Below, one piece after another: positions 2,856-39,450 of a stretch of DNA of 64,000 nucleotides; position 1 is the stretch's first letter; each line of letters begins with the position of its first letter. The notes beneath the pieces are model-generated. The model saw nothing but the letters and a program-made list of their open reading frames with translations. It was not told the DNA's origin and did not search any database. This DNA is from a virus (Duplodnaviria; Heunggongvirae; Uroviricota; Caudoviricetes). The position numbers were made by a program, and so were the translations under genes. Location of the stretch: the IMG/VR virus record IMGVR_UViG_2872147552_000001; one strand, given 5' to 3'.

Positions 2856-3731
2856 TTAAATTTTTACATTGGTCAGTGCAGCGATAGCCTTATCGTGCTT
2901 ATTCGCCAGAGAGCAGTACCACTTCACACGGGTACGTACTGCGTCTTTGTTCTGTACAGTACCAATGTTTTCAACAACGATACCTGCGTTGTCGCCGCCA
3001 TACAGACCAGTAACGCCGTTCTCTTCTGACAGATGCAGGCAGTAGATGCTTGCTTTGCCAGAATCGGTCGGGATGAAGTCGTTGATGATGAACGGAACGC
3101 CGTTATGACACAGCATCGGACGACCGAAGTTCTCCATCATGATTTCAGACGGACCTACGTTTACTGTACGCAGCAGCGCACGGTAAGCACGCAGGTGCTC
3201 TGAACGCATCATGATGCAGTCAGCACCAAGATCTTTCACCGCATCGACCAGTTCGTCGAACATAGAGAAAGTCATAGATGCACCGGCGATATCGATCTTC
3301 TGATCTGCGTGCATCAGGCGTGGAATGCCGTCAAACGCCTTGTTGTTGGAGCTGGAGTCACCCAAAATCAGGTTGCGACGGAACGCACGAGCCAGACCTT
3401 TAACTTTCTGACGAACCTGAATAGCCAACTGGTTGTTGGTGTCGGCCATAGTGGTCGCCAGGAATTTATCAACGTCTACGTCACCAGCCAGAATACGCAG
3501 TTTCGCAACGCATTCTTCGAAGGTTGCTGCACCTTCAGGGATGGTGTCGTTAACGTCGATGAAGGTAGCTTCACTCAGCGTTTTTTCACGGTTGTACAGA
3601 TATGCCTTTGAATTAATTTTCATAAAAGGCAGGATGGCAAACAGGTCATCGCGATCGATGATAGTTTCGATCACACCCTGTTCAAGTTCGTTGTTAGACA
3701 GCTTTTCAGCTTCTTCACGCAGTAATGGCAT
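2856..3731 (-). CDS. major capsid protein (by position and size)
   Basis: 291-aa ORF between scaffold-like gene and Ig-like decoration gene in the order TerS-TerL-portal-scaffold-capsid. Confidence 0.55.
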   Translation of the reverse strand: MPLLREEAEKLSNNELEQGVIETIIDRDDLFAILPFMKINSKAYLYNREKTLSEATFIDVNDTIPEGAATFEECVAKLRILAGDVDVDKFLATTMADTNNQLAIQVRQKVKGLARAFRRNLILGDSSSNNKAFDGIPRLMHADQKIDIAGASMTFSMFDELVDAVKDLGADCIMMRSEHLRAYRALLRTVNVGPSEIMMENFGRPMLCHNGVPFIINDFIPTDSGKASIYCLHLSEENGVTGLYGGDNAGIVVENIGTVQNKDAVRTRVKWYCSLANKHDKAIAALTNVKI

Positions 3732-3756
3732 CTATCAATTCCCTTTGATTTAGATG

Positions 3757-4644
3757 TTACTTAAGTCCAATTTTCCCCAGACCGGAGGCCAACTTATCCA
3801 TAGTCGACTTGTTCTTCGGTTGGGATATTGTGTAGGTCGATTTGGAATGTGAGCCTACACCCTGCTTGGCTTCGCTACGCATCAATGCGTCAGCTTCCGG
3901 ATCTGCCCGCACAATGCGTTCAATCGCGGATTCAAACGGCAACGGCTTACCTTCACCGTCAACCAGAACAGCTCGTTCTTTGTGACCTGCCGGTTTGTCA
4001 TAACCCACTACGCTACCGTCTTCACCAACTTCAAAATGAGAACCGTAGATCACGCGGGCTTTTGCCGGGGTCATCAGAACTTTGTCACGTAGGAAGAGAG
4101 AGTTACTGAAGGAAGCGCCCACGGTCATCTCGACTAATTGAGATTTCAGTGATGCGTTTTCACTTTCCAGTGCTGCATAACGTTCGTCACGCTGTGCCAG
4201 CTCTGCCTGGTGTGCTTCGATCATCTGTTTTTTAACAGCATCGAACTCACCACGACGCTCCAGTTCAGCTTGCTCCGCCTCACGACGTGCGTTTTCTGCG
4301 GCCTGTTCAGCTTCTAAAAGCTGGCGAGCACGAGCCGGATCGATATCACCGTACTGAGCAAGCTGATCGGCCAATGTGCGCTCTTTCTCTTTGCGCTTCA
4401 TGTTCTCCTTCAGCAGTTCAGCACCAGCTTTCTTGGTTTTACGAAGTTCGGCCAGTAACTCTTCCTGAGTCATGCCAGCGTATTCGTCATCGCCCTTCGG
4501 CTGCTCTTTTTGTTCACCCTGTTTGTCAGGATCTTGTGTACTCTGCTCATTATCAGCAGCTACACCGCCAGCGCCTCCACGCTCATGCGCTTCAGCGACA
4601 TCCATCAGACCACGACGGGCCAAAAGCATTTGCCACAGATTCAT
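3757..4644 (-). CDS. scaffolding protein (coiled-coil, E/A/K/R/Q-rich)
   Basis: 295-aa highly charged helical sequence (ELLAELRKTKKAGAELLKENMKRKEKE...) between portal and capsid genes; AAGGAA RBS. Confidence 0.5.
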   Translation of the reverse strand: MNLWQMLLARRGLMDVAEAHERGGAGGVAADNEQSTQDPDKQGEQKEQPKGDDEYAGMTQEELLAELRKTKKAGAELLKENMKRKEKERTLADQLAQYGDIDPARARQLLEAEQAAENARREAEQAELERRGEFDAVKKQMIEAHQAELAQRDERYAALESENASLKSQLVEMTVGASFSNSLFLRDKVLMTPAKARVIYGSHFEVGEDGSVVGYDKPAGHKERAVLVDGEGKPLPFESAIERIVRADPEADALMRSEAKQGVGSHSKSTYTISQPKNKSTMDKLASGLGKIGLK

Positions 4645-37116: not shown

Positions 37117-37261
37117 GTGGACTCCATCCAGTGTCAGAAAGAGTTGCGGCTGGCGATTGCCAGCCGCCTTTCTCGTTCCATCCTGGAACTGTGTCTTACC
37201 GACACATTGTCATCCTGACGCTGATAAGATACATGATTTAAAATGATAGGTAAACACTTAC

Positions 37262-37855
37262 TTACTGCTTGTTGTAAACAAAACCAATATCTTTCTTGTG
37301 AGGCATATCTGCTGCGGAAAAAGCTGCGATCTTCGCGAGTCGATCACATATTTCATTTTCACGATGCCCGGCGTGACCTTTAACCCACTTCCAGCGAACA
37401 TTATGTCGACTTGCAGCCTCATCCAGACGCTTCCACAGATCAACATTCTTTACCGGTTTTTTGTCAGAAGTCACCCATCCATTGCGTTTCCACCATTTCA
37501 TCCACTGTGTCATGCCGTTTTTCAGATACTGGCTATCAGAGTACAAAATAACGTTGCATGGATATTTCAAACGCTCCAGCCCGATAAGTGCGCCCATCAT
37601 CTCCATGCGGTTATTGGTGGTGCTATGAAAACCATCTGAGAACTCGCGTTCCTCACCACGATACTGGAGAACGATACCGTAACCACCCGGGCCACCCGGA
37701 TTTTTAAGGCAAGAGCCATCACTAAAGATTTTCACGGTTTTGAGCTGGGGATTGAACTCTACGACAGGCGTTGTGGGATTGGTGCGGGGAGAATTTTTGT
37801 TTTTGGCTTTTTTGCGAGTTTTTGCTTGCGATCGGGCTGGTGTCTTCGTCGTCAT
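37262..37855 (-). CDS. ribonuclease HI
   Basis: RNase H fold motifs ([41 protein letters not shown]); track GTG start 37906 replaced by ATG at 37855 with AGGAG RBS. Confidence 0.8.
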
Positions 37856-38439
37856 ATAAACTCCTGAATCAAGCGCCGCGCCGATTTTTTCCTCGCGCGT
37901 GCGCACACGCGTGCGTGTTAATAATTATTAAAATAAACAAATTACTTCCCAGAACAGGTTTTTATAAACCTGAACTGAACGAACGAAGTGAGTGAAGTTC
38001 ACCTCGAACGAAGTGAGAGGTTGTCTTTTCAGGTAATACTCTCCCAGGGAGGTGAGTATAAAAATCCCTCACCAACCTGGTCGTTTCATAACCTGAAAAG
38101 TTATGGCCTAAGTCTACTGCCAGCTTAGACTTGGGAAGTTATGGATGACAGCACCCCAGAACCGAGATCTTCCCACACTTTATGAAGGGGAGTACTGGAT
38201 TCAACCTCTCGAAACACCCCAGACTCGACAATCATAAAGTGACCCTTGTCTCCGCTCACTTTGGTTCCCCCTTCCCCGACACCTAAACGGCACCGGTTCT
38301 ACGCTGGTAGTGAGCTTTTTTTAAACCTGACGCCAGTGACGCTTACCCCCACCCATCAGGTCGAGTCTCCAGTCTACGACTGGAAACTAGCAGATCTTAG
38401 CACTTACAATTCACTTTATGAATAGTTTGTACTTATCTA

Positions 38440-38694
38440 TCATTTCGATTGATTATTTTCTCGACCATGTAGTTGAACATTCAAGGCAAACACCTCATTG
38501 ATCAACTCACCTAAAAGCTGTTCAACAAGTTCGCGATGCTCGCCAAGATGCAAGCACTTAATTGCCCATTCGTACAAGTTGAAAGCCTGCTCGCGATCTT
38601 TCATCATTTCACGGGCCTGGGCCAGAAAATCGCTCTCTACGAGCGCAACGACATTAGTCGGGTATGACATGTTGGTTTCCTTAAAGTGGTTCAT
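38440..38694 (-). CDS. hypothetical small protein
   Basis: 84-aa ORF downstream of nested hairpin element copy 2. Confidence 0.4.
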   Translation of the reverse strand: MNHFKETNMSYPTNVVALVESDFLAQAREMMKDREQAFNLYEWAIKCLHLGEHRELVEQLLGELINEVFALNVQLHGRENNQSK

Positions 38695-38750
38695 AAAATC
38701 GATTTTAAAGCGTCTGGGAAGGGGTTCTAGTGGATTCTGTAGTGGTGTTC

Positions 38751-38850
38751 AGGTCTGGGAGTCTCTGATATAAAACAGCCTGCTTCCGTATATTAATAAT
38801 TAATATGTAGTTATTTATATATACAGAAGCAGGCTAATTACAGACGCCAG
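38751..38850. repeat. nested inverted-repeat element, copy 2
   Basis: Shares AGGTCTGGG and the GCCTGCTTCCGTATAT / TATATACAGAAGCAGG arms with the copy at 8250-8349. Confidence 0.6.
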
Positions 38851-38856
38851 AACAAA

Positions 38857-39450
38857 CTAAGCAGCCTTCTTTGATGGTCTTTTTTTCCTGATCACATTCG
38901 CAGGATCATACCCTCCCAGACTTTTCATGACATCCAAAGGGATCTTGCTTATAGAGTGCCCAGCGTCCTGACAGAATCCTCGAAAAACAACGAGCATACT
39001 GCCACCGGGGTTGATGTTTACTTCTACCTGACCCAGATTGACGTCAGGCTCGACAAACGCTACGCGGCCACCAGACAGAATAATCGTCTCATTCGCACAC
39101 TCTGTTGCACGCTCATACCACTTTGTATCGAGGGATTGAGGAATTAGCATCACTGTTGTAACTCCGCGAGCCTGCTCACGTATAGCCGCATCAATCCAGG
39201 GGGAGATTTTGGAGTAGGGTGGATTGAGGAAGGCAATTGTACCTGGCTGCCCCCATTCAGATTTCAAAGCATCACGCTCAACGCCTATGAAATTAGGCAG
39301 CTTCGCATTATCCTTGTTGCAGGCAACGTCAACATCAAATGTCACTCCAAGATAACGTTGAATGGCAGAAAACAGCCAGTCAGGTGTTCTCCAGAGGTCA
39401 CGAAGAGAGTTGTCGCGCTTTCGCTGTTTGATTTTTTCGGCTGCAATCAT
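38857..39450 (-). CDS. phage-type DNA N6-adenine methyltransferase (Dam-like)
   Basis: IAFLNPPYS catalytic motif and overall size (197 aa) typical of phage Dam-family enzymes; palindromic motif 39461-39481 immediately upstream. Confidence 0.7.
   Translation of the reverse strand: MIAAEKIKQRKRDNSLRDLWRTPDWLFSAIQRYLGVTFDVDVACNKDNAKLPNFIGVERDALKSEWGQPGTIAFLNPPYSKISPWIDAAIREQARGVTTVMLIPQSLDTKWYERATECANETIILSGGRVAFVEPDVNLGQVEVNINPGGSMLVVFRGFCQDAGHSISKIPLDVMKSLGGYDPANVIRKKRPSKKAA

Follow-up and report, generated by a model that had tools for sequence, protein, structure and literature searches.

A conserved structured element, probably a non-coding RNA gene expressed in lysogeny, upstream of the RNase HI gene in SSU5/pHCM2-like phage-plasmids

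The 585-bp gap between the RNase HI gene and a 76-aa gene of an SSU5/pHCM2-like phage-plasmid, analysed here within a window of 64 kb, houses a non-coding unit, and this non-protein-coding sequence is the best-conserved part of the 1.7-kb span examined around it. We conclude that the unit is probably an autonomous, lysogeny-expressed gene for a structured non-coding RNA of ~450 nt, read from the minus strand and co-directional with the flanking genes. The gene is previously undescribed, and neither the element nor its 12-13-mer sequences are mentioned in any paper found in the literature. A preliminary description of this DNA had listed a structured RNA among its candidates without giving a strand; that suggestion gains support from the sequence itself, which is better conserved than its coding flanks, shows compensatory base changes and carries a conserved promoter, and from published RNA-seq; the evidence points to the minus strand.

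We propose that transcription starts near 38387 and yields an RNA that adopts a multi-domain fold and ends ahead of RNase H, at ~37930-37950, where a branched 3' domain built from two 13-mers would be followed by a U-rich tract. The product would be a lysogeny-expressed ('moron') RNA that accumulates as a stable molecule and could serve as a regulator or protein-binding scaffold, whether as a trans-acting RNA, as a leader halting transcription ahead of the early genes, or as both. In this scheme the downstream early genes, from RNase H onward, would be kept silent in the plasmid state because transcription stops at the end of the RNA.

Genomic setting and conservation

The RNase HI gene (37262-37855, minus strand) encodes a 197-aa product whose residues 40-178 match the Pfam RNase_H family (PF00075, E = 2e-45). 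Its start had previously been corrected to the ATG at 37855, a choice upheld by an AGGAG 7 nt upstream and by the same start in both PGAP and the PhiR41_1 record. The 76-aa gene (PHROG 5343; 38440-38670, minus strand) is the constant upstream neighbour. In most lineages the element lies within a DNA-metabolism module, beside RNase HI; in L448-type contigs RNase H is replaced by other genes and the element is retained. Next to the RNase HI start, a T-run and a 24-nt alternating pyrimidine-purine palindromic tract (37885-37917) are conserved among lineages, are kept where RNase H is replaced and may serve the downstream genes as an operator; the GC-rich palindrome noticed earlier is real and sits within this tract, in which the alternation is perfect (37894-37917).

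Across lineages the core of the element (~37942-38366) retains 93-100% identity, as opposed to only 75-85% in the flanking genes, and purifying selection on it is much stronger than on the neighbouring proteins. Together with folding better than that of shuffled sequence (z-scores of -3.2 and -3.8 for the two strands), this conservation sets the gap apart from chance sequence. The element sequence is non-coding: ORFs of 30-59 aa do occur in what had been described as an ORF-free region, but the description is true where it matters, as frame-breaking indels or stops interrupt every candidate in some lineage. The breaks are 1-2-nt indels in all but one ORF, CYRAN_81, annotated in phage Cyrano, which is frameshifted, truncated or start-less in 15 of 70 distinct versions whose DNA is still highly conserved.

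Database comparison assigned the element to no established family. ARAGORN detected no tRNA or tmRNA in the whole 64-kb window, none of the 4227 models of Rfam 15 matched the window at its gathering score, and at E <= 10 the region 37200-39000 gave just weak unrelated matches, mostly to eukaryotic miRNAs and snoRNAs and far under gathering scores. The preliminary description had held that negative Rfam and tRNA results, combined with a lack of transcription and conservation, would speak against a functional element; the former were indeed obtained, but conservation and transcription are both strong.

A conserved promoter and expression in the lysogen

Upstream of the core, in a stretch otherwise just 52-65% identical, lies what the sequence identifies as a sigma-70-type promoter with an extended -10 element and fixed spacing in each lineage, immediately upstream of a covarying 5' hairpin. 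The predicted -35 hexamer, TTCATA (38417-38422, minus strand), conforms to TTnnnn and keeps a spacing of exactly 17 nt to the -10 in 60/60 distinct versions, and the extended -10, TG-c-TAAGAT (38394-38402, minus strand), carries its hexamer proper at 38399-38394 as TAnnAT in all 60 (variants TAAGAT, TAAAAT, TAGAAT, TACAAT and TAGGAT), with the TG at -15/-14 present in 50/60. The predicted transcription start would accordingly fall at 38386-38389 on the minus strand, near 38387, 6-8 nt past the -10 and 2-5 nt ahead of the 5' hairpin. No comparable promoter was found on the plus strand, where the best scores were 5-7 of 12 and both hexamers and spacing were inconsistent.

Published RNA-seq of an Escherichia coli LF82 lysogen bears directly on expression, as the element of its plasmid Cyrano is 97% identical to ours and CYRAN_81 lies inside it. 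CYRAN_81 is reported at 12x background and listed as an expressed 'moron' (PMC9928086 Table 1), with log2(fpkm+5) values of 6.8-10.35, compared to 3.1-5.8 for CYRAN_80 and 2.6-5.0 for RNase H (PMC9928086, S1 Table). Under five growth or infection conditions the centre of the element thus exceeds both neighbours 12- to 37-fold, the signal falling by that factor from the element to RNase H, and the RNA rises inside macrophages. These data alone leave the strand unfixed because the study is silent on strand-specific read counting (PMC9928086).

Secondary structure and the choice of strand

Local folding indicates that the 5' and 3' domains both fold well, and at least six helices keep their pairing through compensatory changes. 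All positions that follow are for the RNA read from the minus strand. The 5'-terminal hairpin (38369-38383) varies in sequence among lineages and always keeps its pairing, with stems CCAGTC/GACTGG, CCGGA/TCCGG, CTGGCAGAT/ATCTGCCAG, TTCCGGA/TCCGGAA and GATTTCGA/TCGAAATC, and is supported by the predicted fold; the hairpin previously written CCAGTC-TACGA-CTGG is present here, better drawn as CCAGTC-TAC-GACTGG with a 6-bp stem. Hairpin P1 (38325-38361), closed by ACCTGA/TCAGGT, has three pairs with double compensatory changes (AT to GC, CG to TA and AT to GC), the single-step intermediates being A-C on the plus strand and, equivalently, G-U on the minus strand. An A7 linker (38316-38322) follows, its run length being 5-8 among lineages; read on the plus strand, it is a T-run after helix P2 and looks terminator-like. 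Domain P2 (38254-38315) is closed by GCTCAC (38254-38259) and GTGAGC (38310-38315), in which the pair 38256/38313 is TA in 39, CG in 15 and CA in 16 versions and therefore passes through a U-G intermediate on the minus strand only. Its inner helix (38277-38280/38292-38295) occurs in the minus-strand states GC, GU and AU.

Further along, a long helix between CACTTTATGA (38176-38185) and TCATAAAGTG (38232-38241), a 10-bp perfect inverted repeat, encloses a sub-domain and contains one CG-to-UA double change and two positions paired solely as minus-strand G-U. In the next hairpin, GCCTAAG/CTTAGAC (38106-38130), three adjacent pairs each occur as two Watson-Crick types joined via minus-strand G-U. 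The AAGTCTA/TAGACTT stem-loop reported before is an alternative register of this hairpin (38110-38116/38126-38132), present as claimed but with a loop of 9 rather than 8 nt; the plus-strand register exhibits Watson-Crick to G-U changes only. A 10-bp helix, CTTTTCAGGT/ACCTGAAAAG (38025-38100), is predicted for both strands and near-invariant, and encloses a hairpin (38044-38080; CCAGG-GA-GGTGAG ... CTCACC-AA-CCTGG) with fixed stems and a variable loop (38057-38067).

The two 13-mers (37980-37992 and 38005-38017, together 37980-38017) would form the RNA's 3' domain. The direct repeat had been noted as a 12-mer; it is exact and extends to 13 nt (CGAACGAAGTGAG), and by our own estimate two exact 13-mers in 585 nt have a chance expectation of ~0.003. 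Both copies are 100% identical in all 53-70 versions, and as RNA (CUCACUUCGUUCG) they are predicted to fold into a Y-shaped domain. Beyond them, a 3' hairpin (37950-37977; CAG..CAGGT ... ACCTG..CTG) covaries in its upper stem, with TA to GC in eight versions.

The consensus fold of the minus strand comprises 126 pairs, 10-11 of them with double-sided changes, a number reached in 3/500 shuffles, and that of the plus strand 112 pairs, 5-7 with double-sided changes, reached in 26/500, although close relatedness among the sequences makes these controls overstate significance. The majority of helices do not vary and so carry no information on covariation. Within helices common to both strands, plus-strand A-C, equivalent to minus-strand G-U, occurs in 25 sequences at eight pairs, and the reverse asymmetry in just three sequences at two pairs. 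The distribution of G-U and A-C intermediates thus speaks for the minus strand, which is also sense for the flanking genes, as the one that is probably transcribed; in one clade of ten versions, a G-U in the 3' hairpin is compatible with the plus strand only.

The probable 3' end and the proposed silencing of the early genes

The probable 3' end or terminator (37930-37952, minus strand) consists of an invariant CUGGGAAGUAA followed by a U-rich tract. TTACTTCCCAG is invariant and the adjoining AT-rich spacer is otherwise variable, opening with a minus-strand U-rich run in most lineages examined, where the branched 3' domain is followed by the U-rich tract 2-6 nt further on; both the run and this arrangement are weaker in the L059/L062 group (AUUUAUUG). 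A consensus scan of the minus strand found no canonical hairpin-plus-U terminator.

The element might act mainly in cis, as a leader or attenuator with a constitutive promoter in lysogens and termination before RNase H, and we regard such a role as possible, if rather unlikely, in place of a trans-acting RNA. An induction signal would then switch alternative pairings and let polymerase enter the early genes, in the manner of P4/P1 immI. The element immediately precedes, in the same orientation, early genes whose expression is low in lysogens, the cassette keeps its position when the downstream genes are swapped, and competing pairings are available: GUGAG (38259-38255) has three CUCAC partners, one at 38315-38310 and one in each 13-mer, and two GGGAAG copies compete for a single CUUCCC. 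Conservation, however, extends well beyond the usual need of an attenuator, no regulator or ligand is evident, and when the RNA increases between conditions, its neighbours do not exceed the general trend. The attenuator is compatible with an autonomous RNA gene and does not exclude it.

The closest parallel in logic is with the leader-encoded immunity RNAs of P4 (CI) and P1 (c4), which the element appears to resemble by analogy; homology is not indicated. Like the P4 CI and P1/P7 c4 RNAs, it is non-coding, is associated with a constitutive promoter and the lysogenic or plasmid state, lies upstream of and co-directional with silent lytic genes, and contains internal repeated and complementary segments. 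The P4 CI and P1/P7 c4 RNAs are 69-77 nt once processed and pair with defined target repeats, whereas the element is ~450 nt long with at least 10 helices, and its complementary repeats lie within the RNA itself. No Rfam match to C4/P4-type RNAs was obtained, a point that also counts against the attenuator, and the window holds no target repeats of at least 13 nt complementarity. Indeed, a search of the 64-kb window for antisense targets yielded no complementarity of at least 13 nt to the RNA outside the element, and two 12-mers, as by chance. GOLLD, ROOL and other large bacterial non-coding RNAs are likewise large, ornate and conserved, and GOLLD and ROOL are, like the element, borne by mobile DNA, in their case phages or prophages, but the element is smaller than GOLLD or ROOL and shares no sequence or structure similarity with any of these RNAs at Rfam thresholds or at E <= 10.

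The hairpin cap and the question of an origin

Read on the plus strand, the 13-mers follow the pattern C-GA-A-C-GAA-G-T-GA-G and cap two hairpins with a widespread GA-tandem/GAA tip, in which a GAA triloop is closed by C-G, next to a paired A-T (G-C elsewhere) and flanked by tandem G-A/A-G. This architecture is common to the mini-hairpin DNA d(GCGAAGC) and tandem sheared G-A motifs, but it is apparently the complementary strand of the element, rich in pyrimidines, that is transcribed. Such an arrangement has been described for mini-hairpins of extraordinary stability at phage origins and in N4 promoters (PMC13037366). The 12-mer repeat of the preliminary description belongs to this cap, which is found in many unrelated phages, bacteria and archaea; a stretch of 13-21 nt is letter-for-letter identical in phages, bacteria and haloarchaea, and the cap occurs in hundreds of unrelated contexts with no common function. 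A reading of the cap as a primase or origin signal was not sustained, because it also lies near haloarchaeal tRNAs, in REP-like palindromes and in either gene orientation.

We deem it improbable that the element is a lytic replication origin, at which a G-run-rich RNA would form an R-loop and RNase HI would trim the primer in the style of ColE1, T4 or mitochondria, with the stable plus-strand mini-hairpins as single-strand initiation signals. RNase HI adjoins the element in most lineages but is dispensable as a neighbour, and minus-strand G4-5 runs are mildly enriched (5 observed vs 1.8 expected, P ~0.02), yet published criteria for R-loop-forming sequences call for ~40% G and the strand has only 28%. 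An AT-rich spacer does lie beside a GC-rich tract, but there is no GC-skew inflection, there are no DnaA boxes, and no iterons or iteron arrays occur beyond the two 13-mers, themselves parts of hairpins. GAA-triloop mini-hairpins are known from the G4 origin, RSF1010 ssiA and N4 promoters (PMC13037366), but the cap recurs in many non-origin contexts. Furthermore, the element is transcribed in non-induced lysogens, and multi-helix covariation is rare in origins. Neither the lytic origin nor the packaging site proposed earlier found positive support, and the annotated neighbourhood contains no terminase genes.

The ColE1 RNA II/RNA I system likewise involves a conserved structured plasmid transcript of 400-550 nt linked functionally to RNase H, and near 38300-38322 a hairpin with a U-run is reminiscent of the RNA I terminator, but the plasmid of the element uses a RepB initiator ~17 kb away and RNase H is not always adjacent. 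The 9-mer CGCTGGTAG is presumably common to the element and ColE1. A ColE1-type RNA-primed origin was rejected, as Rfam gave no RNAI match and the string behind the likeness is that of the RNA I terminator and not of the origin.

Remaining alternatives

We consider it very unlikely that the functional RNA is instead encoded on the plus strand, antisense to the operon, starting at ~37945 and ending at GCUCAC/GUGAGC plus U7 (38316-38322). A covarying helix followed by a T-run does resemble a terminator, the GA-tandem/GAA caps are stable on the plus strand only and several Watson-Crick to G-U changes suit plus-strand registers; the supposed terminator stem, however, carries C-A in 16 versions, two covarying hairpins lie past the T-run, compensatory pairs are fewer and there is no conserved promoter (best 5-7 of 12). 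A plus-strand RNA ending at the T-run was dropped on the symmetric two-strand test, the A-C/G-U asymmetry and the promoter survey. That the product is a small protein, the 44-aa CYRAN_81 (38125-38259, minus strand), is barely credible: the Cyrano record annotates the ORF, which is listed among expressed 'morons' and intact in 55/70 versions, but it opens with GTG, lacks an evident ribosome-binding site, is broken or start-less in the other 15 with nucleotides still conserved, covers 135 nt of a conserved span of ~420 and is crossed by covarying helices.

A CsrA/RsmA sponge was discarded for want of enrichment (8 minus-strand GGA vs 8.3 expected), as were a CRISPR-repeat mimic (I-E/I-F) and a Xer/cer site, by-eye likenesses in which the needed hairpin or spacing is absent and positions vary among lineages.

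Significance and distribution

As an RNA expressed in lysogens and raised in macrophages, the product of the proposed gene is a candidate for governing the choice between plasmid and phage lifestyles or for influencing the host. More tentatively, and with no great expectation that it will hold, a new class of large structured RNAs might begin with this element, its members determining maintenance or immunity in SSU5/pHCM2-type phage-plasmids; the invariant 3' domain is built on the widespread cap. If that is so, the RNA might work, for example, as a protein-sequestering scaffold or as a conformational switch deciding whether the early lytic operon is read, and the cap might represent a mini-module able to move into hairpin loops or, alternatively, an undescribed universal structural signal. 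The structured RNA gene favoured here would add a new family to RNA databases and annotation pipelines, under which the gap is at present left blank or filled with small ORFs that are spurious or with an RNase H gene annotated too long.

The element was absent from the other RNase H-bearing phages examined. In a Moellerella phage-plasmid, a homologue of the 76-aa gene with 45% identity is followed by an ordinary terminator, with no element behind it, and chromosomal rnhA loci that a genome scan had raised as distant homologues proved irrelevant. The host range of the element is that of Enterobacteriaceae phage-plasmids; those of the SSU5/pHCM2 type are frequent in clinical Enterobacteriaceae and able to bear resistance genes, and the element is present in 686 of the 72,556 plasmids of PLSDB and, among complete E. 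coli genomes, in 232 of 5,426.

Genomic context and conservation of the element

The window shares 96-99% identity with E. coli SSU5/pHCM2-type phage-plasmids (such as phages CMS-2020a, PhiR41_1, and Cyrano) and ~80-83% with Salmonella phage SSU5 and Klebsiella relatives. The gap at 37856-38440, devoid of any PGAP annotation, sits within a long minus-strand run of DNA- and nucleotide-metabolism genes encoding SbcCD-like proteins, NrdAB, ThyA, DHFR, a DnaQ-like exonuclease, a methylase, and a 76-aa protein of unknown function, with RNase HI on its far side. The corrected RNase H start at 37855 holds: it has an AGGAG 7 nt upstream, is also used by PGAP and the PhiR41_1 record, and places the Pfam RNase_H domain at residues 40-178 of a 197-aa product. 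The reported absence of a credible ORF in the gap likewise stands: small ORFs exist, but none is conserved and one- and two-base indels hit every one. In some plasmid records 'hypothetical protein' ORFs are annotated within the element, and in the SSU5 RefSeq record (NC_018843.1, comparison locus L002) the RNase H CDS SSU5_090 (3560-4324, 765 nt) is ~170 nt too long and overlaps it. The phage-plasmid RNase HI itself has an N-terminal extension of ~39 residues (residues 1-39; window 37856-37265), basic and poorly conserved, that is missing from chromosomal RnhA, matches to which begin at residue 38-41.

In an alignment of ten lineages differing by more than 3%, mean pairwise column identity is 0.93-1.00 across 37960-38360 versus 0.75-0.85 in the flanking genes, and drops to 0.35-0.65 at the element edges (37920-37950 and 38370-38420); the noncoding core therefore changes several times more slowly than the surrounding proteins. 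In PLSDB, 686 plasmids carry the element (Klebsiella, Escherichia, Enterobacter, Salmonella, Citrobacter, Cronobacter, and Shigella), as do 232 of 5,426 complete E. coli genomes, where it is nearly always plasmid-borne, 12 phage records, and many IMG/VR and metagenome contigs. It was not found in other phages with related RNase H genes, and a Moellerella phage-plasmid keeps the 76-aa gene, followed by an ordinary terminator, without the element. In several metagenomic contigs unrelated genes replace RNase H while the element still adjoins the 76-aa gene, and it is therefore an independent module rather than an RNase H leader.

In these contigs the homology break falls at ~37882-37930, and a T-run and alternating tract travel with the element. 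The two form a conserved stretch at 37885-37917, between the RNA 3' end and the RNase H ribosome-binding site, in which the T-run is followed by 24 nt of perfectly alternating pyrimidine-purine sequence (CGCGCGTGCGCACACGCGTGCGTG) with overlapping palindromes. The GC-rich palindrome of the preliminary description lies inside this 24-nt tract (37894-37917), which may serve as an operator or be prone to Z-DNA formation.

Covarying helices and the sense strand

ARAGORN detected no tRNA or tmRNA, and no Rfam 15 family matched the window at gathering score. At E <= 10 the element region returned only weak, unrelated families far below threshold, mostly eukaryotic miRNAs and snoRNAs; the microRNA-like noise is due to a 17-bp inverted repeat with a 25-nt AT-rich loop (AGCCTGCTTCCGTATAT / ATATACAGAAGCAGGCT, 38777-38835) between the methylase and 76-aa genes. 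Compared with shuffled sequence, each strand has the more stable fold (z = -3.2 and -3.8). The stem-loops noted earlier are present with slightly different loops, as AAGTCTA-N9-TAGACTT at 38110-38132 (formerly N8) and as CCAGTC-TAC-GACTGG at 38369-38383 (formerly CCAGTC-TACGA-CTGG).

Across 53 and then 70 distinct versions of the element from related phage-plasmids, several helices stay paired through changes on both sides. These include the closing stem ACCTGA/TCAGGT (38325-38330 / 38356-38361), in which three pairs have changed, the GCTCAC/GTGAGC helix (38254-38259 / 38310-38315), and the 3' hairpin (37955-37972). A fourth is the 38369-38383 hairpin, which differs wholly in sequence between lineages, with pairing always kept. 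A first reading took the plus strand as the folded one, since many single changes gave G-U pairs there, and was dropped as biased because predictions pick G-U-compatible registers on their own strand. A symmetric two-strand comparison favors the minus strand, with a consensus energy of -143 versus -115 kcal/mol, 126 versus 112 predicted pairs, 10-11 versus 5-7 pairs with double-sided changes, and 3 versus 26 of 500 shuffles reaching the observed double-sided count. Helices identical on both strands provide a cleaner test: A-C mismatches on the plus strand, equivalent to G-U on the minus strand, occur in 25 sequences at 8 pairs, versus 3 sequences and 2 pairs for the opposite type. At the pair 38256/38313, for example, 39 versions have TA, 15 have CG, and 16 have CA. 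Three further helices show real compensation in minus-strand registers only (38106-38112 / 38124-38130, 38277-38280 / 38292-38295, and the 10-bp CACTTTATGA/TCATAAAGTG); in one clade of 10 versions the 3' hairpin has a G-U compatible with the plus strand only. With sequences this closely related and most pairs invariant, covariation alone makes the strand call a preference, not proof.

The last 100 nt of the RNA are predicted to form a Y-shaped domain (z = -3.3), in which part of one 13-mer copy (ACUUC) pairs with GGAAGU directly before the U-rich tract. Competing pairings exist, namely one GUGAG with three CUCAC partners and two GGGAAG copies for one CUUCCC, and such alternatives would permit a switch.

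A conserved promoter precedes the element

Conservation is generally low between the 76-aa gene and the element, yet all 60 distinct versions carry a minus-strand TTnnnn, exactly 17 nt, and TAnnAT, with TG at -15/-14 in 50. In the window these are the -35 TTCATA (38422-38417), the extended -10 TG (38402-38401), and the -10 TAAGAT (38399-38394). The hexamers vary by lineage (TAAGAT, TAAAAT, TAGAAT, TACAAT) within a constant geometry, and the site scores 8-9 of 12, near the cut-off of a generic promoter scan, which therefore missed it. By the same scoring, the plus strand upstream of the core reaches 5-7 of 12, and its hexamers, spacing, and position are inconsistent. Since the promoter ends 8-10 nt ahead of a covarying hairpin, the RNA would start with a 5' stem-loop. 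An internal stretch of the RNA gene (AGATCTTCCCAC-ACTTTATGAA, 38165-38186) recurs in the promoter region of the E. coli lineage (AGATCTTAGCAC...CACTTTATGAA, 38392-38422), which looks like a lineage-specific partial duplication or a shared binding site.

At the opposite end, a U-rich run opening an otherwise variable AT-rich spacer comes after the invariant CUGGGAAGUAA (37952-37942) in most lineages examined; the run is weaker in the L059/L062 group of comparison loci (AUUUAUUG). A scan detected no canonical terminator at the minus-strand 3' end; we infer this end from the fall in RNA-seq signal ahead of RNase H, and the exact RNA ends are putative.

The element is transcribed in lysogeny

Misson et al. 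(PLoS Pathog 2023; PMC9928086) re-analyzed RNA-seq of E. coli LF82, which carries phage-plasmid Cyrano, whose element is 97.4% identical to that of the window. CYRAN_81, a 135-nt ORF call (Cyrano 78657-78791; window 38125-38259, minus strand) wholly inside the element, is listed there as autonomously expressed during lysogeny, with a level 12-fold above the median of the prophage (PMC9928086). As log2(fpkm+5) in two replicates per condition (S1 Table of PMC9928086), CYRAN_81, the 76-aa gene CYRAN_80, and the RNase H gene CYRAN_82 reach, respectively, 6.82/6.92, 3.36/3.13, and 2.59/3.44 in LB stationary phase; 9.34/9.02, 4.62/4.20, and 3.87/3.83 in B1; 6.94/6.89, 4.10/4.07, and 4.42/4.27 in B6; 8.97/8.23, 5.81/5.14, and 4.70/4.01 after 1 h in macrophages; and 10.35/10.30, 5.22/5.01, and 5.02/4.78 after 6 h. 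The element signal thus exceeds both neighbors 12- to 37-fold and peaks inside macrophages, revealing a discrete transcript over the element, and its drop points to an RNA 3' end before RNase H. The libraries are stranded, as profiles are given for both strands; the text is silent on strand-specific counting, so that the RNA-seq fixes transcription and not by itself the strand, which we infer to be minus. By far the strongest lysogeny-expressed Cyrano gene in that study is CYRAN_43, a 185-aa hypothetical protein (OV696614.1, 40268-40822), at 723-fold over the prophage background in LF82 (PMC9928086, Table 1).

A candidate regulatory RNA and its alternatives

The preliminary description had guessed at a structured RNA, a lytic origin, or a packaging site and had proposed Rfam and tRNA scans, covariation analysis, and RNA-seq. 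The scans were negative. Covarying helices were found, and the element is transcribed in LF82 (PMC9928086); together with the conserved promoter, these two results support the RNA in a more specific form than envisaged. The element is noncoding, under strong selection, and transcribed as a discrete unit, and we consider it probable that it is an autonomous minus-strand gene for a ~450-nt structured noncoding RNA expressed in the plasmid (lysogenic) state. Its most likely function would be that of a stable regulatory or scaffold RNA. Ending ahead of RNase H, it would insulate downstream early genes in lysogens, by the same logic as the P4 CI and P1 c4 leader RNAs, to which it shows no homology. 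It is a family of expressed, structured RNAs not described before, carried by a group of phage-plasmids that is widespread in the clinic.

A purely cis-acting attenuator fits much of the evidence and is compatible with an autonomous RNA gene rather than exclusive of it; as the whole explanation we regard it as unlikely. A lytic origin with R-loop priming draws circumstantial appeal from the G-runs on the RNA, the AT-rich spacer, mini-hairpins of a kind known from phage origins, and the RNase H neighbor; yet this neighbor is dispensable, there is no skew inflection, and the element is expressed in uninduced cells, making an origin quite improbable. A plus-strand RNA terminating at the T-run lacks a promoter and has C-A mismatches in its supposed terminator stem, and is very improbable. 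The 44-aa CYRAN_81 ORF is frameshifted, truncated, or without a start in 15 of the 70 versions, frame breaks that leave a small protein practically excluded, and nothing favors a packaging site.

A recurrent hairpin cap

The direct repeat noted earlier is an exact 13-mer, CGAACGAAGTGAG, at 37980-37992 and 38005-38017, and is invariant within this RNA gene. On the plus strand (37973-38023) each copy is a hairpin tip reading variable stem, C, GA, A, C, GAA triloop, G, T, GA, G, and complementary stem. Unrelated viral contigs carry the same tip. In 96 non-SSU5 loci, the two variable positions hold G and C in 186 cases and A and T in 35, with hardly any other combination; of 221 copies, 194 lie between genes, and 86% have a further flanking pair. 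The consensus is a 13-nt CGA-R-CGAAG-Y-GAG with R/Y always complementary, alongside a 21-nt two-tier form. The exact 21-mer GAACGAACGAAGTGAGTGAAG occurs in at least 89 distinct non-SSU5 contexts among metagenome contigs; among the matches listed are sites immediately 3' of tRNA genes in haloarchaeal chromosomes, REP-like palindromes in proteobacteria, tandem arrays, and T4-like phages. Cap and 21-nt form recur letter-identical in hundreds of unrelated places, including T4-like phage intergenic regions and CRESS-like contigs. Examples among our comparison loci are L172 (9033-9244), L223, L214 (1104-1138), L335 (11257-11277), L348 (4906-4926), L383, L395, and L372. Orientation relative to co-directional genes is mixed (51 antisense, 29 sense).

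In two distantly related T4-like contigs, a second conserved noncoding stretch of ~200 nt (L172 9290-9520; L223 9200-9400, reverse strand) lies beside a convergent double-hairpin motif pair, upstream of the gp55 late sigma gene; it has no Rfam match and may be another unannotated RNA.

We found no mention of the cap sequence in the papers searched; its architecture agrees with that of d(GCGAAGC), an 'extraordinarily stable mini-hairpin' with tandem sheared G-A pairs (PMC13037366). The cap, which a variable inverted repeat flanks in all cases, may be either a mini-insertion that moves or a super-stable tip that arose by convergence.
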